From sequence record PP400778: a stretch of 64,000 bases of DNA, one strand, 5' to 3'. The notes under the pieces were generated by a model, which worked only from the letters and a program-made list of their open reading frames with translations, ran no database searches and was not told the DNA's origin. The number at the start of each line of letters is the position of its first letter. Within the stretch, counting starts at the first letter, position 1. Below, piece after piece: positions 2,724-63,757 of the stretch. The DNA comes from Escherichia phage FL15. Both the position numbers and the translations under genes were made by a program.

Positions 2724-2754
2724 AATAAAAAAAGCCTTCCCGAAGGAAGGCTTT
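2724..2754 (-). terminator. intrinsic terminator downstream of gene 32
   Basis: Hairpin AAGCCTTCC-CGAA-GGAAGGCTT followed by a U-run on the minus strand, just after the gene 32 stop. Confidence 0.7.
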
Positions 2755-6757: not shown

Positions 6758-7321
6758 TCATCCTCTTTTTGGAAAATTTAAATAAGCATACTCGCCAACT
6801 ATTTCATGTGCTGCACGGTCATAAGCCTTAGCCGCCTCAACTTCTGTCTCAAAGTATCCTAGATGTATATTCTTTCGATTGATAACAATATACGCCTTCC
6901 ACGGCTTTTTCTTGCTTGGTGATAATGATACACCTTTATATTTGCTATGGCAAGCCTTTTTCTTTGAGACGTTAAACTGATTTTGCTGTTCGGTTGCTTC
7001 TCTCATGTTTGACGGTCTATTGTTAGTTTTGTCTTGGTCTATGTGATCTATTCGTTCAACCTGAGTACCATACTCTAAAAACCAGACAACTCTATGTACA
7101 AACAGATTAAGTTTATGACCATTGTTGTAAAATGTAAAGTATAAATATCCTTCTTTATGGAGACATACCCTTACCACATCACCTTTTTTGTATATGGACC
7201 CTTCTTTTCGGAATCCAGCAGCTACAGAATCCTTTAAATGGTATAATATTCCATCGACATGATAGAATCTACCTTTTATCGCTTTCTGTGTCTCGATATC
7301 CCAAAATTTTGTTTTTGCCAC
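6758..7321 (-). CDS. free-standing HNH homing endonuclease with AP2 DNA-binding domain
   Basis: HNH motif (HRVVWFLEYG...IDHID.DK.NNRPSNMREAT) and AP2-like YKGVS...WKAYI...HLGYFETEVEAAKAYD; likely GTG start with GAGGTG SD; paralog at 30558-31121. Confidence 0.8.
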   Translation of the reverse strand: MAKTKFWDIETQKAIKGRFYHVDGILYHLKDSVAAGFRKEGSIYKKGDVVRVCLHKEGYLYFTFYNNGHKLNLFVHRVVWFLEYGTQVERIDHIDQDKTNNRPSNMREATEQQNQFNVSKKKACHSKYKGVSLSPSKKKPWKAYIVINRKNIHLGYFETEVEAAKAYDRAAHEIVGEYAYLNFPKRG

Positions 7322-11114: not shown

Positions 11115-11119
11115 TTAAA

Positions 11120-11136
11120 GGGGGCGAAAGCCCCCC
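11120..11136 (+). terminator. GC-rich stem-loop after gene 34 (weak terminator or RNA stability element)
   Basis: GGGGGC-GAAA-GCCCCC hairpin; no clear U-run. Confidence 0.3.
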
Positions 11137-11148
11137 TATGGGGTTATT

Positions 11149-12288
11149 ATGACACAAGAGATAGAATTACGCAACACTGGAATTAAGTTTGCGCATTTCG
11201 ACGAAGACTCCGCGACATTTACAAGCATTTCAGAAAACAACTCTGTGATGTATAAGCTGGAAGTGCGCGGATCTAATGCGGATTCTACCAAACCAGCAAG
11301 AATTAGATTTAATGGAGTGGAGATCGTTGGCGCTGGCTATGAAAATGGCCTAAATTTTAAAGTTCTTACTCCAACTGGACAACTACACGAAGAAAAGGTA
11401 TTCTATGGTCGCGGTGCTGTTTTGGCAATGCGTGATTATCTTTCTTTGCTGAAAGGTGACTATATCATTGCGATGGTAACGCATGGAGAATTGTTTGCAG
11501 ACCCGATAAGTGATGTTGTATTTTCTAAGATGGGATCTGTATCATTCCCGAATCACATTTTGTTACAGCAAATGCCTCGTGTATCCTATGCAGCAATTTA
11601 TTCTACTAAAATGGGCAAAATTGTGTGCGAAGGGATGCAAGCAACGAACGGGGAAGGTCAAGATTCGTCTATACAGATCGAGAAAGTTTATGATACTATA
11701 GACGATCTTGCAATAACAGGAACACCACAACGATTTTTAGATTATCCGGTTGAATATGTTAGCGAAGATGCCGAACATTTCGAGCTAATACAATGGCATC
11801 ATGATGAGATCAGCGCACCACTTGAAGATTTTAACATAAAGGCAGGTGACAAACTATCAATATCCTTTGAATTGTTCCGTGATAGTGCCGCAGCCGCAGC
11901 CAACGTAACAGCGCGTTTCTATCACAACTACTTCACCGATGGACAATATAAAACTGGCGTTCGTTATAATGCCATCCAGAAAGATCAATGGGAAAAGTTT
12001 GAAGCCGTCTATACAGTACCGGAAGGAGTTGATAGTGTTACCACTGGTTGTATCAGATATCCAACCAACTCCAACGAAGGTGTTGTTAAGGTTAGAAACA
12101 TACTAATAACGCCGATTAGTGGAGTCGTCAAAACTACTGGTCCTACTTCCTTTGGTGTTAACGGTATTAGAACAACTCACATTCAGGATAACGGCAATTT
12201 CGATAACCCTGTTATGAGTCTTCTTAAATTACCTAGAGACAATAAACATATCACATCCAACAACTTTAAAGAGTTCGATGTTGATTAA
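11149..12288 (+). CDS. 35: long tail fibre hinge protein gp35
   Basis: 379 aa ORF between gp34 and gp36 on the late strand; size and position match T4 gp35 (372 aa). Confidence 0.8.
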   Translation: MTQEIELRNTGIKFAHFDEDSATFTSISENNSVMYKLEVRGSNADSTKPARIRFNGVEIVGAGYENGLNFKVLTPTGQLHEEKVFYGRGAVLAMRDYLSLLKGDYIIAMVTHGELFADPISDVVFSKMGSVSFPNHILLQQMPRVSYAAIYSTKMGKIVCEGMQATNGEGQDSSIQIEKVYDTIDDLAITGTPQRFLDYPVEYVSEDAEHFELIQWHHDEISAPLEDFNIKAGDKLSISFELFRDSAAAAANVTARFYHNYFTDGQYKTGVRYNAIQKDQWEKFEAVYTVPEGVDSVTTGCIRYPTNSNEGVVKVRNILITPISGVVKTTGPTSFGVNGIRTTHIQDNGNFDNPVMSLLKLPRDNKHITSNNFKEFDVD

Positions 12289-12299
12289 CATTTTTAACA

Positions 12300-12328
12300 A
12301 GCCGATCCTCGTGGTCGGCTTTATTTTT
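12300..12328 (+). terminator. intrinsic terminator after gene 35
   Basis: Hairpin AGCCGATCC-TCGT-GGTCGGCT followed by TTATTTTTTA; the same stem recurs at 23316 and 61868. Confidence 0.7.
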
Positions 12329-12450
12329 TATACAGTTGGTTAAAACATAACCAAAACGAAGAAAGATCTTTAGAATAATAGAAAATTTGTTTCGGTTAAA
12401 AAATAGTCAGTGCCTACGGCACGTCGCGAAGCGATATTTTGTTAACATTC

Positions 12451-12458
12451 TATAAATA
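12451..12458 (+). promoter_or_regulatory. T4-type late promoter core TATAAATA
   Basis: Exact TATAAATA about 34 nt upstream of the gene 36 start codon. Confidence 0.45.
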
Positions 12459-12491: not shown

Positions 12492-13982
12492 ATGGCAGAT
12501 TTGAAACATGGATCTACTGTAGGCGGATCTCCCATTTGGACGCAAGGAAACTTGACGATCCAACCAGCGGGCGATCAGCTTTTCTATAAAGGTCATAAAA
12601 TCTATACCGCTTTTGATAAACCTTCGGCTGCCGATTTTGATGCTGTTAGTGCATCTGAGGGTGGTACATTTCAGAAACTGGTCCATTTTGAGGAAGGTTT
12701 AAGCGTAGGTAGCGCATCCGGTGGAGAAACCAAAAAGAACGGGATCTTTAAAGGAAAGAGCGACGCTGCTAATTTTGACGGCGTAAGCTGGGGTTTGCAT
12801 TCATGGAAGTCAATCGGCTTTGTTAATGCCCGTGATGGCGTTATTATGGCGTATATTGACACCACAACGGGCGAATTTAAGTCTAAAGGGACTATCGAAG
12901 GGACAACCATTAAAGACACAGGTCAACGCGTCTATAGCCCTGTTAATAAACCAACGAATAATGATTTGGATTTAGTTTCCCGTCGCGGTGATACTCTCTC
13001 AGGAACGTATAATTTAAACACTGTCACTGTTAAACTATCGGTTGATTCGAAATTAATTGCAAGGGAACGTGATTTAATTAATTTTGATGCGACTAAGATC
13101 TATTATGGTAACGTTCTTGATACGTTGGTCTTCCGAAGTAAAGATGAGCCTACCATTTTTGTTAATGGCAAAGAAGGTCGTTTTTATCACACCAACAATA
13201 AACCGACTAAAGCCGATGTTGGACTAGGTAATGTCACCAATGATGCACAGGTTAAACGTGCTGGTGATATTATGGAAGGTAACTTGCAAGCTCCTAGAAT
13301 GTTGGCGACAAACGATCCTGCTGGTCCTAATGAATTGGTTCGTTTGAGCTACTTTGAGAAAAAATCAATGGTAGCAAATCCAACAATCATCGGAAACGTT
13401 GATTGGAACACTCTTATTAATCGCGGTATCTATCGTGTTGAAAATGCTGGGTCAGGTACTAATAAACCGTCTGATAGCTATTATAACGGCGTTTTGATGG
13501 TATATCGCCCAGAAGATGCGGTCGGTACTCGTCGAATTGTTCAGGTATACTATCCTGAATCTATTGATCATCCTATGTGCTGGCGTTCTTGTTCTAATGA
13601 ATCATGGACTGCATGGAACTATGTCGATCACCGTAAATTAGCCGATATTCGCTATGTTAACGTAACTGGCGATACCATGAGAGGTGCTTTGACAGTTCCC
13701 GCTGCAAACGGCGTTCGTACCGCAAAAGCTAACTATAATGGTGATAATTGCTACGCTGGACTTAATAGCTTAGATGGCACAGCAATGATTCATCGTGTTA
13801 GTGATATTAAAGCGCATGAGAAACTAGGCATCACACATGATTCTAAAATTATTTTCGTTAAATCACGCAACAATACTCAGGACACCGATACATTTGAATT
13901 ATACCACGAAGGGCATAAACCTACCCCTGCCGAAGTTGGCGCTGTTCCGCTTAATGCGGTAATTGATTTTGGTACTTTCTAA
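12492..13982 (+). CDS. 36: long tail fibre distal connector gp36 (enlarged, 496 aa)
   Basis: N-terminus MADLKHGSTVGGSPIWTQGN matches T4 gp36 (MADLKVGSTTGGSVIWHQGN); much longer than the 221-aa T4 protein. Confidence 0.8.
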   Translation: MADLKHGSTVGGSPIWTQGNLTIQPAGDQLFYKGHKIYTAFDKPSAADFDAVSASEGGTFQKLVHFEEGLSVGSASGGETKKNGIFKGKSDAANFDGVSWGLHSWKSIGFVNARDGVIMAYIDTTTGEFKSKGTIEGTTIKDTGQRVYSPVNKPTNNDLDLVSRRGDTLSGTYNLNTVTVKLSVDSKLIARERDLINFDATKIYYGNVLDTLVFRSKDEPTIFVNGKEGRFYHTNNKPTKADVGLGNVTNDAQVKRAGDIMEGNLQAPRMLATNDPAGPNELVRLSYFEKKSMVANPTIIGNVDWNTLINRGIYRVENAGSGTNKPSDSYYNGVLMVYRPEDAVGTRRIVQVYYPESIDHPMCWRSCSNESWTAWNYVDHRKLADIRYVNVTGDTMRGALTVPAANGVRTAKANYNGDNCYAGLNSLDGTAMIHRVSDIKAHEKLGITHDSKIIFVKSRNNTQDTDTFELYHEGHKPTPAEVGAVPLNAVIDFGTF

Positions 13983-21699: not shown

Positions 21700-21740
21700 T
21701 GATGGGAGTATCTTACTACTCCCTTAATCCGGTGTCAACT
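21700..21740 (-). promoter_or_regulatory. early promoter cassette with palindrome (PeSL-like)
   Basis: Minus strand GTTGAC (21734-21739), then palindrome GGGAGTA-N6-TACTCCC (21704-21723) enclosing a TAAGAT -10, upstream of ATG 21675. Confidence 0.5.
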
Positions 21741-22221: not shown

Positions 22222-22244
22222 GTGATTCTCCTTTCGTTTGGTAT

Positions 22245-22280
22245 GGGAGTATCTTACTACTCCCTTATCTTTACGTCAAC
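22245..22280 (-). promoter_or_regulatory. early promoter cassette with palindrome (PeSL-like)
   Basis: GTTGAC (22275-22280) plus GGGAGTA-N6-TACTCCC palindrome (22245-22264), near-identical to the 21700 copy. Confidence 0.5.
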
Positions 22281-22286
22281 TAGTTT

Positions 22287-22529
22287 TTAGAAATTTTTCG
22301 CTTCTTCTTCGGTCATCATAACCGCGCATTCGTGCATAACTTTGAAAACCGGATCAATCATGTCGAATGCTTCGCGGGACAGTTTACGAGAAGCGATTTT
22401 GATTGCTTCTACGTCTTCTACTACAGGAACAAAAACAGTTTTCAGTTCGTCGAGGACGGCAGCTTCTTTTTCATTCAGGAAGATCCCAGCGTCGTACAGT
22501 GCAACTTCGATAACATTAACTTTAACCAT
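22287..22529 (-). CDS. hypothetical small protein
   Basis: 80-aa ORF with GGAGG SD. Confidence 0.5.
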   Translation of the reverse strand: MVKVNVIEVALYDAGIFLNEKEAAVLDELKTVFVPVVEDVEAIKIASRKLSREAFDMIDPVFKVMHECAVMMTEEEAKNF

Positions 22530-22559
22530 TTTATTTCCTCCAGTTCGTTTCGGTATGGG

Positions 22560-22592
22560 AGTATAATACTACCGATGACCTTTGGCGTCAAC
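22560..22592 (-). promoter_or_regulatory. early promoter cassette (PeSL-like, degenerate palindrome)
   Basis: GTTGAC (22587-22592), -10 TATTAT/TATACT inside GGGAGTATAATACTACC, conserved leader CCCATACCGAAAC. Confidence 0.45.
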
Positions 22593-22792
22593 TAGTTTTT
22601 TGTTATTTTCGTGAAATTTTTCGTCGCCTCATGTGCTTTTCGCTGGGCTTCTTGTTGTGCTTGCTGGCGTGCTGCCTCTTGCGATGTCATAACAGACGCA
22701 TTTGCAGCAGTTACAGCCGCGACCATCGCTGCGGTATTAGCATTTACCGTACATGCACTAGCCAGCAAAGCAATCGCAATCATTTTCTTCAT
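22592..22792 (-). CDS. small secreted protein (signal peptide)
   Basis: 66 aa; MKKMIAIALLASACTVNA signal-like N-terminus then Ala/Gln-rich mature part; AAAGGGGAA SD. Confidence 0.5.
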   Translation of the reverse strand: MKKMIAIALLASACTVNANTAAMVAAVTAANASVMTSQEAARQQAQQEAQRKAHEATKNFTKITKN

Positions 22793-22959
22793 AGTTTCCC
22801 CTTTAGGTTATCTTCGACCTTCACCCATTCCGCGTATTCTTGCGCGGCTACTTTCGGATTTAAGCCGTCTTCGTACATTGCTTCAAGTAATTCTTCGTCG
22901 GTGGGCTTATACCCTAGATAAGCCTCCACCTGATTTTTCCAAATTTTATACCAGTTCAT
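22789..22959 (-). CDS. hypothetical small protein
   Basis: ORF; start at MNWYKIWK abuts the upstream stop. Confidence 0.45.
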   Translation of the reverse strand: MNWYKIWKNQVEAYLGYKPTDEELLEAMYEDGLNPKVAAQEYAEWVKVEDNLKGKL

Positions 22960-22963
22960 ATTA

Positions 22964-23236
22964 TCACCAATCAAGAGCGCGTGTCTCTGCGTCTTCCCAT
23001 GCTTGATCCATAACAGCCTTGAAAACATATTCTAGAGTATCATCTTTAGAGAATCCGAAGACCTTAGACGGAATATCTTCAATTGCTACTCCCGCAACTT
23101 CTGCATTACGCGCTTGGCAATAATGCAACTCTAAGTTATCGAGATAGCGACCGCCTAATTTCTCCATATCATCCCAGCATTTCCAGTAACCTACTTTATC
23201 TGCAATTGCCAACACTTTGCTGTTTTCGTTGTTCAT
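22964..23236 (-). CDS. hypothetical protein
   Basis: ORF starting MNNENSKVLAIADKV with leader AAAGGAGAATCAAAG. Confidence 0.5.
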   Translation of the reverse strand: MNNENSKVLAIADKVGYWKCWDDMEKLGGRYLDNLELHYCQARNAEVAGVAIEDIPSKVFGFSKDDTLEYVFKAVMDQAWEDAETRALDW

Positions 23237-23267
23237 CTTTGATTCTCCTTTTGTTTGGTATGGGTGT

Positions 23268-23296
23268 ATTATGCAATGCTGGATTATGGAAGTCAA
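23268..23296 (-). promoter_or_regulatory. sigma70-type early promoter
   Basis: Minus strand TTGACT (23291-23296), 17-nt spacer, CATAAT; leader ACCCATACCAAAC...GGAGAATCA conserved with other cassettes. Confidence 0.45.
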
Positions 23297-23307
23297 ACAA
23301 CTTTTCA

Positions 23308-23337
23308 AATAAAAAAGCCGACCACAAGGATCGGCTT
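23308..23337 (-). terminator. intrinsic terminator
   Basis: Minus strand AGCCGATCC-TTGT-GGTCGGCT + TTTTTTATTT; same stem as the terminators at 12300 and 61868. Confidence 0.7.
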
Positions 23338-23346
23338 AATAGTCAG

Positions 23347-23742
23347 TTACTTACTAAATTTCTTTTTGGCTTCGTCTACTGCATGAGATGCCAGCACCGC
23401 TGCCGCATGTGCACTTTTATCTGTGTTGCATAGAACACCCAGATAAACATCACGCCAAAGTTTAATCATCTCGTAGATCATATCAATATCATTTTCTTGT
23501 TTGTTGGCGATGCTATTCGTCGTTATCTGGTAAGGCAACGGCTTGATCTGTACTGGTTCCGCCATCGGGCTAATCGGTTTCGGATCAGTCATAATAGGTG
23601 CTGTTGTTGGTGGTGTTTTCCATACACCATTATTCCACGGTTTAATCGTTGTATCGTAAAGTTTATAAGGATTTTTGTCTGGATTAACCATCCAGGCATG
23701 ATGAGTACCCAAACCATTTGAAGTAATGCGTCGTTCAGTCAT
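23347..23742 (-). CDS. hypothetical Pro-rich protein
   Basis: 131-aa ORF followed by a strong terminator. Confidence 0.5.
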   Translation of the reverse strand: MTERRITSNGLGTHHAWMVNPDKNPYKLYDTTIKPWNNGVWKTPPTTAPIMTDPKPISPMAEPVQIKPLPYQITTNSIANKQENDIDMIYEMIKLWRDVYLGVLCNTDKSAHAAAVLASHAVDEAKKKFSK

Positions 23743-30123: not shown

Positions 30124-30155
30124 TTTGATTCTCCTAAGTGGTATCTCGTTTCGAT

Positions 30156-30191
30156 GGGGACATTATGATATATCCCCGATCCAGTGTCAAC
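30156..30191 (-). promoter_or_regulatory. early promoter cassette with palindrome (PeSL-like)
   Basis: Minus strand TTGACA (30185-30190), 17-nt spacer, CATAAT; palindrome GGGGATATATCATAATGTCCCC encloses the -10. Confidence 0.5.
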
Positions 30192-30199
30192 AACTTTTT

Positions 30200-30499
30200 T
30201 TAATCTTTTTTCAGTGCGTCCATTACTCGCTCTGCGATCAGTTCTCGTAAGCACTGATAACCATGATATTTGATGGCAATGTCACGCAGATCATTAACCA
30301 GTTCCCGTACTTCATGGTCTTTCAGATCGTCTCTGTATTTCGATTTAATCGTATCTTTAGGTGGATTGCGGATAACCTGAAAACCTTGTTCTGCAATCAC
30401 TGCGGCTTCTCGCTGGCGTTCATGCTGTACTGTATTTTTGATCAGGTCTACTTCCATGAACTTTGTCATACTCATCATCATGTTATTCTTTTTGATCAT
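30200..30499 (-). CDS. hypothetical protein
   Basis: 99-aa ORF with GAGGA SD. Confidence 0.5.
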   Translation of the reverse strand: MIKKNNMMMSMTKFMEVDLIKNTVQHERQREAAVIAEQGFQVIRNPPKDTIKSKYRDDLKDHEVRELVNDLRDIAIKYHGYQCLRELIAERVMDALKKD

Positions 30500-30533
30500 T
30501 ATTCAATCCTCATAAAAGAAAAGGGAGACTCCC

Positions 30534-30561
30534 ATTATAGAGAATCTCCCTTGTATGTCAA
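30534..30561 (-). promoter_or_regulatory. sigma70-type early promoter (TTGACA-16-TATAAT)
   Basis: Minus strand TTGACA (30556-30561) and TATAAT (30534-30539) with GGGAGA...TCTCCC inverted repeats around the -10. Confidence 0.5.
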
Positions 30562-33890: not shown

Positions 33891-34133
33891 TTAAATATCC
33901 TCCGCGATATGCCGGAACAACTCCAGATCGTTTTTATCCAGAATGAAACCGCTACAATCAATAATCCCGTTACCGTAATTATCGGTTAACAGTCGTTCCG
34001 TTGCCATGTATGCGCGTACTTTGTTGTTAAAATTCATTACATGTTGTGCATAGTCACAATGAATCTTTTGACGGTTCCACGCGACAATTGATTGTAGATG
34101 TATTACATTAGCCACATTATCAATAACAACCAT
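33891..34133 (-). CDS. hypothetical protein
   Basis: 80-aa ORF abutting dexA. Confidence 0.45.
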   Translation of the reverse strand: MVVIDNVANVIHLQSIVAWNRQKIHCDYAQHVMNFNNKVRAYMATERLLTDNYGNGIIDCSGFILDKNDLELFRHIAEDI

Positions 34134-34134
34134 A

Positions 34135-34302
34135 TCAAAACCCTCGCTTAGTGAAATGCTCGATCATTTTATTGATACATGCAGCTTCACTATCGCCGGA
34201 CACGTTCCAGCCGTATAGACCCCATCTAAAGCACATGGTAACAGTTCCATTGTGACGGCTTACCGTCACATCATTAAATTCTGGGATACTTCGCATAATC
34301 AT
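34135..34302 (-). CDS. hypothetical small protein (55 aa)
   Basis: Below the ORF-track cutoff; ATG 34302 with GAGGA SD; exactly fills the gap between dda and the 33891-34133 ORF. Confidence 0.4.
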   Translation of the reverse strand: MIMRSIPEFNDVTVSRHNGTVTMCFRWGLYGWNVSGDSEAACINKMIEHFTKRGF

Positions 34303-37407: not shown

Positions 37408-37932
37408 TTAGTAGCCGCGTTCTTGACGGGCGAAGTTTTCAGCATTTTTCAGATAGTACAGAATAAAGAGTTCTTGAGCGTCAATACCCAGCGGGATCAT
37501 CTTTGACAGAATGAAGTGGATCGCGTCCACAAATTCAAATTTCACTTCAAGCTGATCTTCTGGTGACAGTTCAGAGAATTTACGCGCTCGCGCTTCCCCG
37601 TGGTTCTTTTTCCACATTTTCCAGATTGCACTTGCATCTTTACCATTGGACATTCCACCCAGCGATGTGTAAAGCTCTCGTGTTTCGTCTGCGATAGCGT
37701 CATCCATCCGTTGCATCCAATCCAGCATTTCACCGCAAGTCTCTAGCTTAGTTGGATTTGGGACCCAATCAAATTTTTCGGATAGTGCAACCTGCAAACC
37801 AGTTTGCATTTCTAGCATCACCTGAAACGGATCTTTACCTTCTGCAATCGCGTGATGATATGCGGCGATAGCCGCGTTAATATCTTTTTCGTTAACCAGA
37901 CCAGCACAAGAATTAAATTCTGACATATTCAC
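37408..37932 (-). CDS. 56: dCTP pyrophosphatase gp56 (MazG-like)
   Basis: 174 aa; matches T4 gp56 (KDP.QVML.MQ, KLET.G.M..WM, ASA.WKKWK, SPEDQLE.KFE.VD..HF.L, LYYLKN.ENFARQ.RGY). Confidence 0.9.
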   Translation of the reverse strand: MNMSEFNSCAGLVNEKDINAAIAAYHHAIAEGKDPFQVMLEMQTGLQVALSEKFDWVPNPTKLETCGEMLDWMQRMDDAIADETRELYTSLGGMSNGKDASAIWKMWKKNHGEARARKFSELSPEDQLEVKFEFVDAIHFILSKMIPLGIDAQELFILYYLKNAENFARQERGY

Positions 37933-48417: not shown

Positions 48418-48438
48418 GGGGAGTATTTTATACTCCCC
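48418..48438 (-). promoter_or_regulatory. intergenic stem-loop between genes 45 and 44 sharing the GGGAGTA palindrome
   Basis: GGGGAGTA-TTTTA-TACTCCCC; same arms as the palindromes in the 21700 and 22245 promoter cassettes; loop reads TATAAAATA on the minus strand. Confidence 0.4.
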
Positions 48439-53265: not shown

Positions 53266-54291
53266 CTAACTTTTTGCGCTATTTACCTCGGCTAAAAGTT
53301 CATCAGAAATACGCTTGACCGCCGCAAGTTCTTCCGGTTCTAGGTTTTGTTCTTCCAGATATTCATATACCATCTGAATAGTGCTTTTAACTTCAATAAC
53401 ACCTGTTTCCTGTGATGCGCTACTCTCCAGTTTATGGACCACTTTTAGCTTGTGTACAACGGCCTCTAACGCGCTTTCTAACTTAGTTAACCCATTATCA
53501 GCAACCGTTGCAATAAGACGCACACTAAGCCCCTTAAAGCGTTCTACATCGATTTTATCATCTGACGGGTAAGTGATACGCACATGATAAGTTTTGTCAT
53601 TCTGGATAAACTCTTTTTTGTGTGTATCGGTATCGAATACCCAAAACCCACGCGGATCGTTTTCGTCACCCGCCGTTAGTGTGTATGGTGTACCGATATA
53701 CGTTACATTACCGCCATCGCTGATAGTATGAAAATGACCGGAAAACACTTCACGGTATTTCTTGAGGAAGTCCGCGCTATAACCTTCGGATTTTAGCCCT
53801 TTATAGAAATAGTAACCGGACAATTCCCAATGGCCTACACAATATTCGCTGAATGAGTTTTGAATAAACTCTAAAATCTCTGATTTATTGTCATCACAAA
53901 ACCACGGGAACAGATCAAATGATACACCATCAAAGGTAACTGTTTCCGGTTTATCGATAACCTTAATGCAATCATACTGGCTTAACACTTCACGCGGTGC
54001 GTTAGGCTGGATCTTGTTTCGTTTAAACATATCATGATTCCCGACCGTGATATAACAAGTAATTCCAGCCTCTTCCAGTAATGGGATGACCTTAGTACGG
54101 TTAAATTTCATGGTTTCATGGGTAATTGCTTTTCGGCAATCAAACCAATCCCCTGTTTGAATCCATGTCTTAATATTATGCTCTTTGGAGTATTCAACCG
54201 CTTTCTTGATGGTATCAAGAATATACTCATGCACCCACGGATCATCGCCACCGATACCAGTATGCAGATCACCTAAAAGCAAAATTTTCAT
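53266..54291 (-). CDS. 47: recombination nuclease subunit gp47 (Mre11/SbcD-like)
   Basis: 341 aa; phosphoesterase motifs (GDLH, GDWFD, GNHD, GHWE, GHFH) in Mre11 order. Confidence 0.95.
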   Translation of the reverse strand: MKILLLGDLHTGIGGDDPWVHEYILDTIKKAVEYSKEHNIKTWIQTGDWFDCRKAITHETMKFNRTKVIPLLEEAGITCYITVGNHDMFKRNKIQPNAPREVLSQYDCIKVIDKPETVTFDGVSFDLFPWFCDDNKSEILEFIQNSFSEYCVGHWELSGYYFYKGLKSEGYSADFLKKYREVFSGHFHTISDGGNVTYIGTPYTLTAGDENDPRGFWVFDTDTHKKEFIQNDKTYHVRITYPSDDKIDVERFKGLSVRLIATVADNGLTKLESALEAVVHKLKVVHKLESSASQETGVIEVKSTIQMVYEYLEEQNLEPEELAAVKRISDELLAEVNSAKS

Positions 54292-54333: not shown

Positions 54334-54359
54334 AGAAAAATAAAAAGGGAAACCCCTTT
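54334..54359 (-). terminator. intrinsic terminator
   Basis: Minus strand AAAGGG-GTTT-CCCTTT followed by TTATTTTTC, between the 54382 ORF and gene 47. Confidence 0.6.
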
Positions 54360-54381
54360 CAGAGTCTCCCTTATAAAGCCA

Positions 54382-58138: not shown

Positions 58139-58962
58139 TACCATCCTCGCTCTTTACCAATCAAAAATTCAACTTCACGACGTTTAATGTCTTCTTGAAG
58201 GTCTTTAATCTTCTGTCGGTCTTGCATGATTTCATCCATCTTGTCAAGTGCCGCAATGAAATCATCGAAACGTTCAAAGGTTTTACCTTCATTTGCTTCG
58301 CCAAATTTAACCATTGTCAGGCCGTAACGACTACTAAACAGACGTTTCAACTGTCCAACGATTTTAGAATCAGTGGTTATAACTTCCAATTCTTCTACTT
58401 CACGAAAGAATTTTCTATCAGAATCAATAAACCAGCTAGTTCCTTTATGGTCTCTATCTTCGGTTGCGCTCATTAGAGTATGGTCTTTACCATCAATTTC
58501 AATTACATCAATTTGCCCACATGGACTAACATTTTTAACAGTAAAAGGTCTATAATTTATTGCTCGTGCAATAACATAATTAAGGTTAGATACGTTTTCA
58601 GCATAATGACAGAAGTCGGTCATAGCATTCGCATCTTTCCAAGTATAAGTTTTACCAACTTCCCATTTCTGGGGAACTTCTTCAACTTCACGAAAGAATT
58701 TTCTATCGAATGGACTAAAGAAATATGTTGCAGTCCAAATGTCTTTTCCTGTAGCAGTTTTCGCCGTATGATAAACACCGTCTAGCTCTATTGCATCAAT
58801 CCAACCGTTACTCTCGATCTCGATGATGGTAAATGGCTTGTCACCAATAGCTGCACTGATATCGCTGTTAAGTGGAGAAAGAACACCTTCTCCGTTAGTA
58901 ATAAACTCAGTTTTAGCGTTTTCATCTCTCCAAGTGTAAGTTTTACCAATTTCCCATTTCAT
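58138..58962 (-). CDS. member of tandem paralog family carrying two N-domain copies
   Basis: 274 aa; MKWEIGKTYTWRD...DRKFFREVEE repeated as KWEVGKTYTWKD...DRKFFREVEE, then a helical tail. Confidence 0.65.
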   Translation of the reverse strand: MKWEIGKTYTWRDENAKTEFITNGEGVLSPLNSDISAAIGDKPFTIIEIESNGWIDAIELDGVYHTAKTATGKDIWTATYFFSPFDRKFFREVEEVPQKWEVGKTYTWKDANAMTDFCHYAENVSNLNYVIARAINYRPFTVKNVSPCGQIDVIEIDGKDHTLMSATEDRDHKGTSWFIDSDRKFFREVEELEVITTDSKIVGQLKRLFSSRYGLTMVKFGEANEGKTFERFDDFIAALDKMDEIMQDRQKIKDLQEDIKRREVEFLIGKERGW

Positions 58963-58974
58963 AATATATTCCCC

Positions 58975-59440
58975 TTAACCGATTTTATCAAGTTCGTTTA
59001 ATGCTTTCTCAGCTTCCTGTATAGCTTGCACTCTTTCCGGCATTTTGTCAAGAAAATCTTTCAACTCTTCAAAACTGGAGATATGACGCAAGGCGTTAGC
59101 ACCGATAGCCGCATGTGATTTGCATTCAAAGCGGATTTTATAATTATCCATCGCCAATTTGAGAAGATCAATTAATTTAGATTCTTCTGGAATAATAATT
59201 TCTTCAAATCTGCTACGGTCATGATCCAGAAACCAACAAGATAGACCTACATCGGTTGAACTCATATAAGTTCCATCATGAAGATAAACAGACCGCACGT
59301 ATCCTTTTTTTCGCATCAACCGACGCAACTTTAAACGGTAATCGCAGATATTTCAAATAATCAACATCATACCATTTAAAAAATTGGTTTGCATCTTTTA
59401 CATCTTTCCACGCATAGGTCTTACCAGCTTCCCATTTCAT
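58975..59440 (-). pseudogene. member of tandem paralog family interrupted by a frameshift at an A7 run
   Basis: N-domain start MKWEAGKTYAWKD (ATG 59440) is in a different frame from the rest (58975-59328); frames join at the A7 run (plus T7 59305-59311) and would be continuous with one fewer A. Confidence 0.55.
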
Positions 59441-59444
59441 AATA

Positions 59445-59972
59445 TCATCTCTCATTTTTGATACGTGATTCTAATTGGATCATACGGTCGCGCGTTTGTT
59501 TGTATTCTCGGATAGCACCGATCCGGCTAGGCATACCATCCAGTACGCTCTTAATACCTTCTAGGGTAGTAATTTTGGCAATGCTATTATGTAACCCCAT
59601 CTTATCGATCAACTGAATGTCGTAGGCTTCCATAAGCAGACCCAGGCGTTCTAAAGTTAGGTCTTCTTCTTTTTCTTCCGAATCTGGAATCTTAGGTTCA
59701 ATAGCAACTTCGGTAAAGAAACGACGCTCACCCGACCAAAACCACACACCGGAACAGCCAATAGGGGATTCTTTTAACGTCATAGAGTCGAAATTACTAC
59801 CAATAATAGTAATTTCTCTAACATCACCATCATCGTCAAGGTCTTCTACCCTAAACGGGCGACCAGCCAACAAGTCAACAATACATCTGTTAATAGACGA
59901 CGAAAATTTAGTAAGTTCGGCTTTCGACGCTTCGCATTCAATCTTGTAAGTTTTACCAACTTCCCATTCCAT
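59445..59972 (-). CDS. member of tandem paralog family
   Basis: Start MEWEVGKTYK with GAGGTG SD; same N-domain and helical C-terminal tail. Confidence 0.65.
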   Translation of the reverse strand: MEWEVGKTYKIECEASKAELTKFSSSINRCIVDLLAGRPFRVEDLDDDGDVREITIIGSNFDSMTLKESPIGCSGVWFWSGERRFFTEVAIEPKIPDSEEKEEDLTLERLGLLMEAYDIQLIDKMGLHNSIAKITTLEGIKSVLDGMPSRIGAIREYKQTRDRMIQLESRIKNER

Positions 59973-59982
59973 AATAATCACC

Positions 59983-61248: not shown

Positions 61249-61794
61249 TCAAAGGTCGCGATATAGTACATTATGAAAATGAGAACTTGCATTACCAATA
61301 TTGTAGATAATAAATTCTTCATCCGGCGCTTGCGCTACAAATTGAGTATGAGCAACCGCCACAACCTTAAAAATACGATCCGTGATCTTGTGTTTAATTT
61401 CGGCTCCTACTTCCATAGGAACATATTCATGTGTTTCTGTTTCAGTCGCAAAACAGCCATCTTCTTCATAAGCACGAACAAATCGATCGCAATCAGTACG
61501 CTTAACAAATTCAAGAGTATACAATTCTCGTGAATTGTCGGTATAGACTAATACAGAATTATTCTGATAGCGAATCACATACAGGTTATTATCATCGTCA
61601 ATTACGCAAAAGCTACGGATTTGTGTTCCTTCGCCTTTACTCCAGCAGATATTAACCACCGTTCCTCTAATAAAAAAACTTTCCTTTAAATTAAAACTAG
61701 TCAATGTGCTAGCGTGCATTTTAACAACAACACCATCGCCAATTTCCAGTTTACGAAGTTTAACTTCTTTGCTCAGTACACAAAACATCATCAT
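61249..61794 (-). CDS. hypothetical protein
   Basis: 181-aa ORF downstream of a strong promoter. Confidence 0.5.
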   Translation of the reverse strand: MMMFCVLSKEVKLRKLEIGDGVVVKMHASTLTSFNLKESFFIRGTVVNICWSKGEGTQIRSFCVIDDDNNLYVIRYQNNSVLVYTDNSRELYTLEFVKRTDCDRFVRAYEEDGCFATETETHEYVPMEVGAEIKHKITDRIFKVVAVAHTQFVAQAPDEEFIIYNIGNASSHFHNVLYRDL

Positions 61795-61851: not shown

Positions 61852-61862
61852 CACCCCAAAAC

Positions 61863-61894
61863 GAAAAAGCCGACCCTTTCGGATCGGCTAAAAA
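61863..61894 (-). terminator. intrinsic terminator after nrdD
   Basis: AGCCGATCC-GAAA-GGGTCGGCT hairpin flanked by A/T runs on both sides; third copy of this conserved stem. Confidence 0.7.
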
Positions 61895-63757
61895 TTACAT
61901 GTGCTTAACGCGGTTTACCATCTCGGAGTGTTTCCCGTGGTTAAATGGACGCAGATCAACAGATCCAAGATATCCACTAACGCGACGGATAACATTCATC
62001 TTTTCCAGATTGTCATTACCGCAATCAGGGCAAACAAAACCAGACTCGGTCGCTCTCATTTCCTTATTAGATCCGCATACATGACATACATCAGAAGGAG
62101 TATTAACACCGAAGTAGTGCAATTTATCCATTGCATAGTCTACTACAGTTTCAAGACCTTTCAGGTTGTTTTTCATGTCTGGGAACTCAACATAAGAGAT
62201 CATGCCACCGGACGCCAGCCAGTGATAATCTTTCTCAAAGTCGATTTTCTCAAATGGTGTGACTTTCCGGTCTACGTCAAGGTGGAATGAGTTGGTGTAC
62301 CAGTCTTTATCGGTAGCACCCTTAACAATACCAAATTGCTCTCGATCCAGTCGATTAAATCGATAGCAAAGGCTCTCGGCTGGCGTACCGTAAAGACTAA
62401 ACCCAAGTCCGGTTTCATCCTTCCATTTTTCAGTATAATGACGCAAGATCTTAAGAATATGTTTACCGTATCGCTGCGCATCTTCCGAATCAAACGGATG
62501 AACACCAAACAGGACGCTCAATACCTCATGTAAACCAATATATCCAAGAGAGATACTAGCGCGACCATCTTTCAACACTTCCAAAATTTCATCGTTTTGA
62601 TGAATACGGAAAAATGCACCTTCTGTATACAGCACCGGAGCAACATTGGCTTTAGCCCCTTTTAAAGCGTCTACGCGACTCATGAGCGCATCAAAGCAAA
62701 TAGGCATACGATTAGCTAGCTCTTGTTCGAATAGCTCAATTCTGCGCATTACAGACGCTTTACCAGCACGACGAGCGGCAATAAGGGCAATACGCGGAAG
62801 ATTCAGAGTCACAACACCTAAGTTATTACGTCCGTCTAATACTTCCTCGCCTTTCTCATTATGCCACACACCCAGGAAGCTACGACAACCCATCGGGCTA
62901 ACCGGAACACTAGATCCAGTGATACTACGGTTATTCTTCGCAGAGATATAATCAGGGTAAAGACGCTTACTAGAACATTCCAATGCAAGTTGCTTAATGT
63001 CGTAGTTCGGATCTTCCGGTTTAAGGTTTAATCCTTCTTCTAAGAACATCACCAGCTTAGGAAACACCGGAGTGATACCATCTTTACCTAAACCTTTAGT
63101 TCGAACGTTCAGGATCGCTTTCTGAATCAGTTTTTCTTCCCAGCTAGTACCCATACCAAATGTTAAAGTCACAAAAGGTGTTTGACCGTTGGTGGAGAAC
63201 AAAGTGTTGATTTCATATTCCAACGCTTGATACCCGTCTAGCGTTTCTTTTTCTGTCTTCTCTTGTGCATAGAGAGTATCCGCTTTGATTCCGTAGGTTT
63301 CGGCATCAGCAAGGTGTTTATGATATGTTTTCTTAACATACGGTGCTAACACCTGGTCGATGTTTGCAATTGTGGTCCCGCCATATTGATGACTTGCCAC
63401 CTGTGCGATAATTTGAGCGGTTACAGCACATGCAACACCGATCGATTTAGGACTTTCGATTTGTGCGCTACCCAATTTAAAACCATTCTCTAACATGTCT
63501 TTGAGATTAACAAGACAGCAGTTAGTAAACGGCATAGCGGGTGCATAATCCATATCATGATAATGAATATCACCGTCTACATGCGCTTTATAGATGTGCT
63601 CAGGTAACACGGTTTTAGCAATCTGTTTAGACACAGCGCCAGCAATCAGATCTCGACGTGTCGGGAATGTTCGCGCGTCTTTGTTCGCGTTCTCTTTACT
63701 TACTTCGTTTTCTTTACCCGTTGCGATCTCTGTAATGTCTTTGATTAGTTTTTCCAT
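61895..63757 (-). CDS. nrdD: anaerobic ribonucleoside-triphosphate reductase NrdD
   Basis: 620 aa, uninterrupted; C-terminal CxxC...CPDCG zinc site and glycyl-radical region (RVSGYLG) typical of class III RNR; AGGTGA SD. Confidence 0.95.
   Translation of the reverse strand: MEKLIKDITEIATGKENEVSKENANKDARTFPTRRDLIAGAVSKQIAKTVLPEHIYKAHVDGDIHYHDMDYAPAMPFTNCCLVNLKDMLENGFKLGSAQIESPKSIGVACAVTAQIIAQVASHQYGGTTIANIDQVLAPYVKKTYHKHLADAETYGIKADTLYAQEKTEKETLDGYQALEYEINTLFSTNGQTPFVTLTFGMGTSWEEKLIQKAILNVRTKGLGKDGITPVFPKLVMFLEEGLNLKPEDPNYDIKQLALECSSKRLYPDYISAKNNRSITGSSVPVSPMGCRSFLGVWHNEKGEEVLDGRNNLGVVTLNLPRIALIAARRAGKASVMRRIELFEQELANRMPICFDALMSRVDALKGAKANVAPVLYTEGAFFRIHQNDEILEVLKDGRASISLGYIGLHEVLSVLFGVHPFDSEDAQRYGKHILKILRHYTEKWKDETGLGFSLYGTPAESLCYRFNRLDREQFGIVKGATDKDWYTNSFHLDVDRKVTPFEKIDFEKDYHWLASGGMISYVEFPDMKNNLKGLETVVDYAMDKLHYFGVNTPSDVCHVCGSNKEMRATESGFVCPDCGNDNLEKMNVIRRVSGYLGSVDLRPFNHGKHSEMVNRVKHM

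Follow-up and report, generated by a model that had tools for sequence, protein, structure and literature searches.

One stem at three transcription-unit boundaries of Escherichia phage FL15: probable members of a known family of terminator cassettes

The sequence considered here is a 64,000-nt stretch of Escherichia phage FL15 (PP400778), which we refer to as the window. Three short hairpins with the same stem are found in it, each located just downstream of a gene. Hairpin 1 follows gene 35, which encodes the proximal connector of the long tail fibre; hairpin 2 follows an ORFan; and hairpin 3 follows nrdD, which encodes the large subunit of the anaerobic ribonucleotide reductase. The genes, hairpins, T-tracts and promoters at the three sites are as follows; all hairpins were identified by sequence, fold and a terminator scan.

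11149-12288, + strand: gene 35 (gp35, long tail fibre proximal connector; PHROG 1154, E=2e-126; annotated gp35 in phi1)
12300-12320, + strand: hairpin 1, AGCCGATCC-TCGT-GGTCGGCT
12321-12329, + strand: T-tract of terminator 1, TTATTTTTT
12451-12458, + strand: T4-type late promoter TATAAATA for gene 36, 33 nt upstream of the ATG at 12492
23347-23742, - strand: ORFan, homologue of phi1 ORF267 (PHROG 15644, to which no function is assigned)
23336-23316, - strand: hairpin 2, AGCCGATCC-TTGT-GGTCGGCT
23306-23315, - strand: T-tract of terminator 2, TTTTTATTTG (also given as TTTTTATTT)
23296-23268, - strand: near-consensus sigma-70-type early promoter of site 2 (TTGACT, 17-nt spacer, CATAAT)
23240-23269 and 22223-22252, - strand: 30-nt promoter/5'-UTR repeat of family D17, a crossover site by junction mapping
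61895-63757, - strand: nrdD (Pfam NRDD, E=2e-175; phi1 annotation)
61889-61868, - strand: hairpin 3, AGCCGATCC-GAAAG-GGTCGGCT
61858-61867, - strand: T-tract of terminator 3, TTTTCGTTTT
61851-61824, - strand: sigma-70 early promoter of site 3 (TTGACA, 16-nt spacer, TATAAT), matching the consensus at 12/12 positions

An earlier note on this DNA had described a near-identical stem, with the loop alone differing, at 12300 (+), 23316 (-) and 61868 (-), downstream of gene 35, the ORF at 23347-23742 and nrdD. The sequence and a pattern search bear out the first part of this description, and PHROG and Pfam matches the second. The identity of gp36 was likewise confirmed; the remaining neighbouring genes belong to PHROGs of unknown function, and their homologues are called ORF266 and ORF055 in phi1. 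All three hairpins are oriented with the gene that they follow, beginning 11 nt (gene 35), 10 nt (the ORF267 homologue) or 5 nt (nrdD) after its stop codon. When written as a gapped pattern, the stem has three matches in the window, with 0.00 expected from 100 dinucleotide-preserving shuffles; no further copy with two or fewer mismatches was found there.

The palindrome is imperfect. In all three copies the arms are unequal, with 9 nt in the 5' arm and 8 nt in the 3' arm. Sites 1 and 2 fold into a hairpin with a tetraloop, in which a bulged U separates 7 bp from the 2 bp next to the loop. At site 3, one extra G gives nine continuous pairs, i.e., the structure is AGCCGATCC-GAAA-GGGTCGGCT, with 9 bp including a U.G wobble and a GAAA loop of the GNRA type. 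Hairpins in the intergenic regions of T4 often have UUCG or GNRA loops. The folding energies for sites 1, 2 and 3 are -12.8, -12.7 and -16.5 kcal/mol, respectively, with z-scores of -4.0 to -5.3 relative to shuffled sequences. Outside the stem and the T-tract, almost no sequence is shared among the three copies. We also considered a special role for Dam methylation of GATC in the stem, and rejected it: GATC is over-represented in the window as a whole (350 occurrences vs 253 +/- 13 in shuffles), and a related fourth copy of the hairpin, described below, has no GATC.

Each hairpin has the anatomy of an intrinsic terminator. All three combine a stable GC-rich hairpin with a T-tract on the coding strand and a position shortly after a stop codon, and all three are detected by a simple terminator scan. 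Under strict criteria, the window has only seven strong canonical terminators, of which hairpins 1-3 are three. The antisense strand has a comparable fold at each site but no T-tract, and the terminators are thus predicted to work in one direction. Depositors have annotated terminators at the orthologues of site 1 in TB34, GEC-3S, G2494, Makalu_002 and G2248, of site 2 in TB34 and G2248, and of site 3 in TB34 and Makalu_002. An Rfam search with the hairpin gave no match, and a search of the literature for Term-seq, 3'-end or reporter data on these three hairpins found none. The resemblance to canonical intrinsic terminators of E. coli and T4 is close, encompassing a GC-rich stem of 8-9 bp, a loop of 4-5 nt, a U-tract and a position just past the stop codon. 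They differ from canonical terminators in nothing essential; the one peculiarity is that three sites reuse a single stem with the same bulge or wobble.

From this anatomy, we infer that transcription does terminate at the three hairpins. Once RNA polymerase had transcribed the GC-rich inverted repeat followed by the U-tract, a 9-bp hairpin would form within the exit channel, and the transcript would be released because its rU:dA hybrid is weak. The hairpin at the 3' end may also protect the mRNA from 3' exonucleases. Each hairpin would close one transcription unit shortly after its stop codon, upstream of the next promoter.

The next promoter is a late one at site 1 and an early one at sites 2 and 3. 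The late promoter motif TATAAATA has two copies in the 64 kb, the second at 7140, ahead of gene 34; the motif is rarer in the window than expected (2 vs 5.7). The copy before gene 36 is kept in a divergent relative (contig L109). Since this late promoter precedes gene 36, hairpin 1 divides two late transcription units, genes 34-35 and genes 36-37. No sigma-70 promoter was found at site 1, where the late motif is the only promoter. At sites 2 and 3, sigma-70 promoters begin 19 nt and 16 nt downstream of the hairpin, respectively, and are followed by GGAG or GAGG and then the ATG of the downstream gene, which at site 3 is the ORF at 61249-61794, the homologue of phi1 ORF055. The hairpins at these sites mark the boundaries between ORF267 and ORF266 and between nrdD and ORF055. 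Because termination acts on the core polymerase, the same module could serve the late transcripts of site 1 as well as the early sigma-70 transcripts of the other two sites.

The arrangement at sites 2 and 3 has been described before. Arbiol et al. (2010; PMC2839356) reported that phi1 and RB49 have ~50 "promoter-early stem-loop" (PeSL) cassettes per genome, each combining a near-consensus sigma-70 promoter and an AT-rich region with a stable terminator stem-loop, a Shine-Dalgarno (SD) sequence and a start codon. They distinguish five subclasses by the position of the stem-loop, one of which has the stem-loop upstream of the -35 box, and name nrdD as PeSL-associated (PMC2839356). They also report that the termination efficiency of one PeSL stem-loop, which is not one of hairpins 1-3, is close to that of rrnB T1, and that ORFans are shuffled through PeSL recombination (PMC2839356). 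Comeau et al. (2014; PMC4122927) added that the typical RB49/phi1 PeSL stem has the form Gn-loop-Cn, which is frequent and non-obligatory, and described degraded "half" PeSLs.

Sites 2 and 3 match the PeSL subclass with the stem-loop upstream of the -35 box, since a sigma-70 promoter follows the hairpin. They have the promoter, the stem-loop position, the SD sequence and the start codon of such a cassette, and their downstream ORFs fall into PHROGs of unknown function, PeSLs being found mostly ahead of ORFans. The ~100-bp repeat similarity seen among PeSLs is also present, in repeat families D5 and D17 at site 2 and in an alignment of both sites with six other cassettes. In that alignment, homology runs over the T-tract, an A-rich region, TTGACA, a 17-nt spacer, TATAAT, CATCGAAAC, the SD sequence and the ATG; despite this downstream homology, the stems differ between sites 2/3 and the six aligned cassettes. 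Further points of likeness to the phi1/RB49 PeSLs are that the loci are orthologous and belong to the same genus, that the cassettes are repeated genome-wide, that sites 2 and 3 are associated with an ORFan and with nrdD, and that genes have been gained and lost by recombination at the site 2 cassette (see below). There are also differences. First, the stem is of the AGCC...GGCT type (AGCCGATCC/GGTCGGCT), unlike the typical Gn-loop-Cn. Second, hairpin 1 is followed by a late promoter, with no sigma-70 promoter; site 1 is therefore a plain terminator and not a PeSL by definition. It is possibly a "half" cassette, comparable to the degraded "half" PeSLs of PMC4122927. Third, recombination junctions lie in the promoter/5'-UTR part rather than in this hairpin, and sites 1 and 3 have undergone no shuffling in the genomes compared.

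The earlier note had called for a genome-wide search for the stem. We extended the search from the window to the complete RB49 genome (OZ035808), joined from four stretches. As in the window, there are three exact copies in the whole RB49 genome; a single IMG/VR contig likewise carries three. A fourth, compensatory member of the family lies at RB49 130590-130614 (-), outside the window, between vs.6 and nrdC.11, with the sequence AGCCAATCC-GAAAAG-GGTTGGCT-TTTTCGTTTT; it is present in phi1 too (L127, about 1694, -). Compared with site 3, the fourth copy has a like type of loop and an identical TTTTCGTTTT tail, and its stem carries a compensatory change from G-C to A-U. No consensus sigma-70 promoter was found after the fourth copy.

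Other stems are also reused. RB49 has 27 strong terminators, and the outer AGCC...GGCT stem occurs in 12 of them. A second stem, AGCCGTCC...GGGCGGCT, has one copy on each strand of RB49, and one of the two copies precedes a late promoter. Tails, too, are common to pairs of terminators: site 3 and the fourth copy, sites 1 and 2, and the terminators T13392 and T152954. In the window, GGGAGTA-loop-TACTCCC occurs three times (21704-21723, 22245-22264 and 48419-48437; 0 expected), and these stems overlap the -10 boxes of promoters on the minus strand, as in the classical form of a PeSL. The arm AAGGGAGAnTCT is found in two terminators of the window (30521-30552 and 54345-54372, -). Since these other stems are reused as well, stem reuse is a general trait of the cassette family, with the three exact copies as its tightest subgroup.

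The stem sequence is not exclusive to Krischvirus, since it is found in unrelated phages as well. Scanning IMG/VR with the stem pattern returned 101 matches in 99 stretches, seven of them in Krischvirus-type contigs. The remaining matches are in GC-rich coding DNA or unrelated terminators, and a T-tract accompanies 38 of the 101. Marine T4-like contigs, otherwise unrelated, carry an identical 22-nt hairpin with the GAAAG loop, followed by a T-tract. The unrelated contigs with the stem include L029, L033, L050 and L055, as well as L063, a 14-kb contig in which the stem occurs twice, 2.1 kb apart, each time followed by a T-tract and an SD sequence. Wide spread of the stem as a mobile module was rejected, given that only seven of the IMG/VR matches are of Krischvirus type. 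An origin from the host was likewise rejected: when hairpin 3 was used as a BLAST query, none of 5,426 complete E. coli genomes gave a match.

How did three sites come to have the same stem? Three terminators might have arisen independently and converged on a particularly good hairpin. The generic occurrence of the outer AGCC...GGCT stem among RB49 terminators fits such convergence, as does the use of the exact stem as a terminator by unrelated IMG/VR phages. Nonetheless, chance alone would give no match in the window, the imperfection of a 9-nt arm facing an 8-nt arm is unlikely to have been selected three times for stability, and the tails shared by pairs of terminators point to duplication. 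We therefore consider convergence very unlikely. The identical 17-nt stems share one non-Watson-Crick position and belong to a graded family of related terminators, which argues that the copies are not independent. The earlier note had favoured a non-independent origin, and its view is supported by the absence of expected chance matches, the shared imperfection and the graded family. It is from the stem, the imperfection and the family that we infer common descent.

The three sites are conserved among relatives. The region of site 1 is 93-96% identical to 58 Krischvirus records (RB49, phi1, JSE, ECD7, GEC-3S and relatives, which are T4-type coliphages), and the window itself is of this genus. 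To compare the stem with its surroundings, we chose loci by anchors in the upstream coding sequence rather than by a match to the stem. The loci were from the window, phi1, RB49, TB34, Skers, KFS-EC, 011D4, ECD7, Makalu_002, G2248, FL37, a 150-kb IMG/VR contig and a 169-kb metagenome contig; all relatives but one are 90-98% identical. Variable columns numbered 0/51 in the stem, 4/13 in the loop and 53/318 in the flank (p=3.5e-4, a flank-anchored value that ignores phylogeny). The stem is intact at all three sites in every anchored locus that covers them, while the loop varies between TCGT and ATGT at site 1 and among TTGT, GTGT and TAGT at site 2. The length of the T-tract at site 2 also differs between relatives. 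Similarly, queries of 31-32 nt spanning each hairpin differ at no more than one position from the 58 GenBank Krischvirus records; the one-mismatch BLAST variants that we inspected differ in the loop or in the length of the T-tract, and none of them in the stem.

Scans of IMG/VR with gp35 and NrdD yielded one divergent contig, L109, which covers site 1 only. Its gp35 is 84% identical and its flanks are 68-78% identical, and it has the exact stem; the stem, including the bulged U/U.G position, is thus unchanged at site 1 in a lineage whose flanks have diverged by 22-32%. A metagenome scan with gp36 found a single close relative. No divergent lineage spanning sites 2 and 3 was found in the IMG/VR scans (gp35, NrdD) or the metagenome scan (gp36). 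Other T4-like genera, whose NrdD is about 64% identical, have a terminator after nrdD with an unrelated stem.

Such invariance raises the possibility, put forward in the earlier note, that the stem is a common recognition site for a protein or an RNase. The stem would then be bound in a sequence-specific manner by an RNA-binding protein or RNase of the phage or the host, with the bulged U or U.G as the key feature, and would coordinate the 3'-end processing or stability of three transcripts that belong to different temporal classes. In keeping with this idea, none of the 17 bases of the stem, the non-Watson-Crick position among them, differs between the three sites, in any relative examined or in the divergent lineage; the loops and flanks drift while the stem stays fixed; and the three sites themselves show no compensatory change. 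Several observations speak against it: (i) the loops differ between sites (pyrimidine-rich NNGT vs GAAA) and drift within sites; (ii) the fourth copy preserves the structure by a double compensatory change; (iii) homologous cassettes carry unrelated stems; (iv) a stem of 9 bp is too short for RNase III, whose T7-type sites consist of about 20 bp of double-stranded RNA, often with an internal loop and with no requirement for a U-tract; (v) there is no Rfam match; and (vi) the same 22-nt hairpin serves as a terminator in the unrelated marine T4-like contigs. A recognition site of this kind is, in our judgement, decidedly unlikely, and the proposal gains no positive support from the comparison. 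There is a similarly small chance that the stem is held constant beyond what hairpin stability requires, either by a factor of the phage or the host that reads the exact helix and thereby links termination, 3'-end processing or mRNA stability in early and late units, or by homogenising gene conversion. Taken together, the invariant stem, the compensatory fourth copy and the presence of other stems in homologous cassettes favour selection on structure over sequence-specific binding.

Another terminator of the genus shows the same kind of change as the fourth copy. An apparent pair of orthologous terminators, at 2731-2754 (-) in the window (AGCCTTCC/GGAAGGCT) and at 54216-54235 (-) in RB49 OZ035808 (AGCCTCCC/GGGAGGCT), differs by a compensatory pair and has an identical TTTTTATTGCC tail; orthology here is deduced from the tail and the promoter. 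From this pair, it would seem that other terminators of the genus evolve by compensation.

We next consider the boundaries of the cassettes. In seven to eight comparisons with relatives, using identity in 200-nt bins, neither indel breakpoints nor steps in divergence were found at sites 1 and 3, and no gain or loss of neighbouring genes was seen there. Site 2 differs. There, immediately past the hairpin in the downstream direction, the similarity to ECD7 and to contig L084 breaks off sharply. ECD7 lacks positions 22253-23239 of the window (~1 kb, four small ORFs), and the crossover lies inside the 30-nt repeat; in L084, an extra ORFan and another stem-loop promoter are inserted at the same 30-nt repeat. 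In a further contig, L133, the start region after the SD sequence of the site 2 cassette is different. The exchange at site 2 is modular shuffling of the PeSL type in the promoter/5'-UTR, and the gene upstream keeps its AGCCGATCC hairpin. The site 2 cassette offers a clean case of PeSL-mediated gene gain and loss, in which the crossover could be placed within a 30-nt repeat. The cassette boundary that the earlier note had sought is accordingly present as a junction downstream of the hairpin at site 2, and absent at sites 1 and 3.

Indel and mosaic breakpoints relative to seven relatives also recur elsewhere in the window, at or near sigma-70 promoters (30135-30561, 21751, 22019, 22300, 22802, 34130-34187, 37920-37932 and 42333); the breakpoint at 30561 coincides with a -35 box. 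This distribution is consistent with PeSL-mediated shuffling.

The hairpin could instead be an autonomous mobile element, similar to a MITE or a REP, that inserts downstream of genes. It is indeed a short palindromic repeat found at distant sites and on both strands, and unrelated contig L063 has the stem twice within 2 kb. The resemblance to the REP/BIME sequences of enterobacteria lies in being a repeated imperfect palindrome at the 3' ends of genes. REP/BIME palindromes can stabilise mRNA or attenuate transcription. REPs have hundreds of copies, sequence conserved past the stem, specific binding proteins and no U-tract. Unlike REPs, the hairpin described here has three or four copies, unconserved flanks, a U-tract and no occurrence in E. 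coli. Past the stem and T-tract, the copies have neither sequence in common nor terminal repeats or a target duplication; there is no presence/absence polymorphism, all three copies being present in every relative; each genome has only three exact copies (three or four in the family), with none in the E. coli genomes; and indel breakpoints do not fall on the hairpins. We regard an autonomous element as extremely unlikely. The mobile terminator module suggested in the earlier note survives in part: sites 2 and 3 are in PeSL cassettes, and genes have been gained and lost at the site 2 junction in ECD7 and L084, but the crossover is in the promoter/5'-UTR repeat, sites 1 and 3 show no indel, and the copies share only the stem and the T-tract.

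The explanation that we consider likely, with good confidence, is that the hairpins are intrinsic terminators, paralogous members of a PeSL-type cassette family, and are kept by selection on the hairpin. The three sites would have a stem in common because they are paralogous copies within the repeated terminator and terminator-promoter cassettes of the genus. Copies would have been spread or homogenised by recombination and then preserved by selection on the hairpin. The presence of one stem in early and late units, together with the compensatory fourth copy, suggests that terminators have been duplicated among cassettes in the same way as promoters. The finding is real but not new: this is an ordinary family of terminators, and cassettes of this kind have been known since 2010. 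Its value lies mostly in annotation, where it marks three transcription-unit boundaries and confirms that the window has terminator and terminator-promoter cassettes of the RB49/phi1 type.

Three further features of the window are described here in their own right. A hairpin of the form G5C-GAAA-GC5 (11116-11138) fills the 34 nt that separate genes 34 and 35; lacking a T-tract on the + strand, it does not qualify as a canonical terminator. A sharply bounded intergenic repeat of ~99 nt, TTGGTTAAAACATAACCAAAACGAAGAAAGATCTTTAGAA...GTGCCTACGGCACGTCGCGAAGCGAT (12336-12434, +), lies downstream of terminator 1 and upstream of the late promoter of gene 36. Each of the 58 Krischvirus records has this repeat at four places in the genome, and the rest of the phage collection lacks it. 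One RB49 copy, with 97% identity, lies ahead of gene 3, and two degenerate copies are arranged in tandem downstream of hoc. The repeat has no Rfam match and a fold z-score of only -2.3; its core is kept in the divergent contig L109. Lastly, 58608-59977 contains four copies of a 69-nt repeat (family D1), 67-74% identical and 290-530 nt apart, which resemble conserved 5' ends of paralogous minus-strand genes forming a small family.
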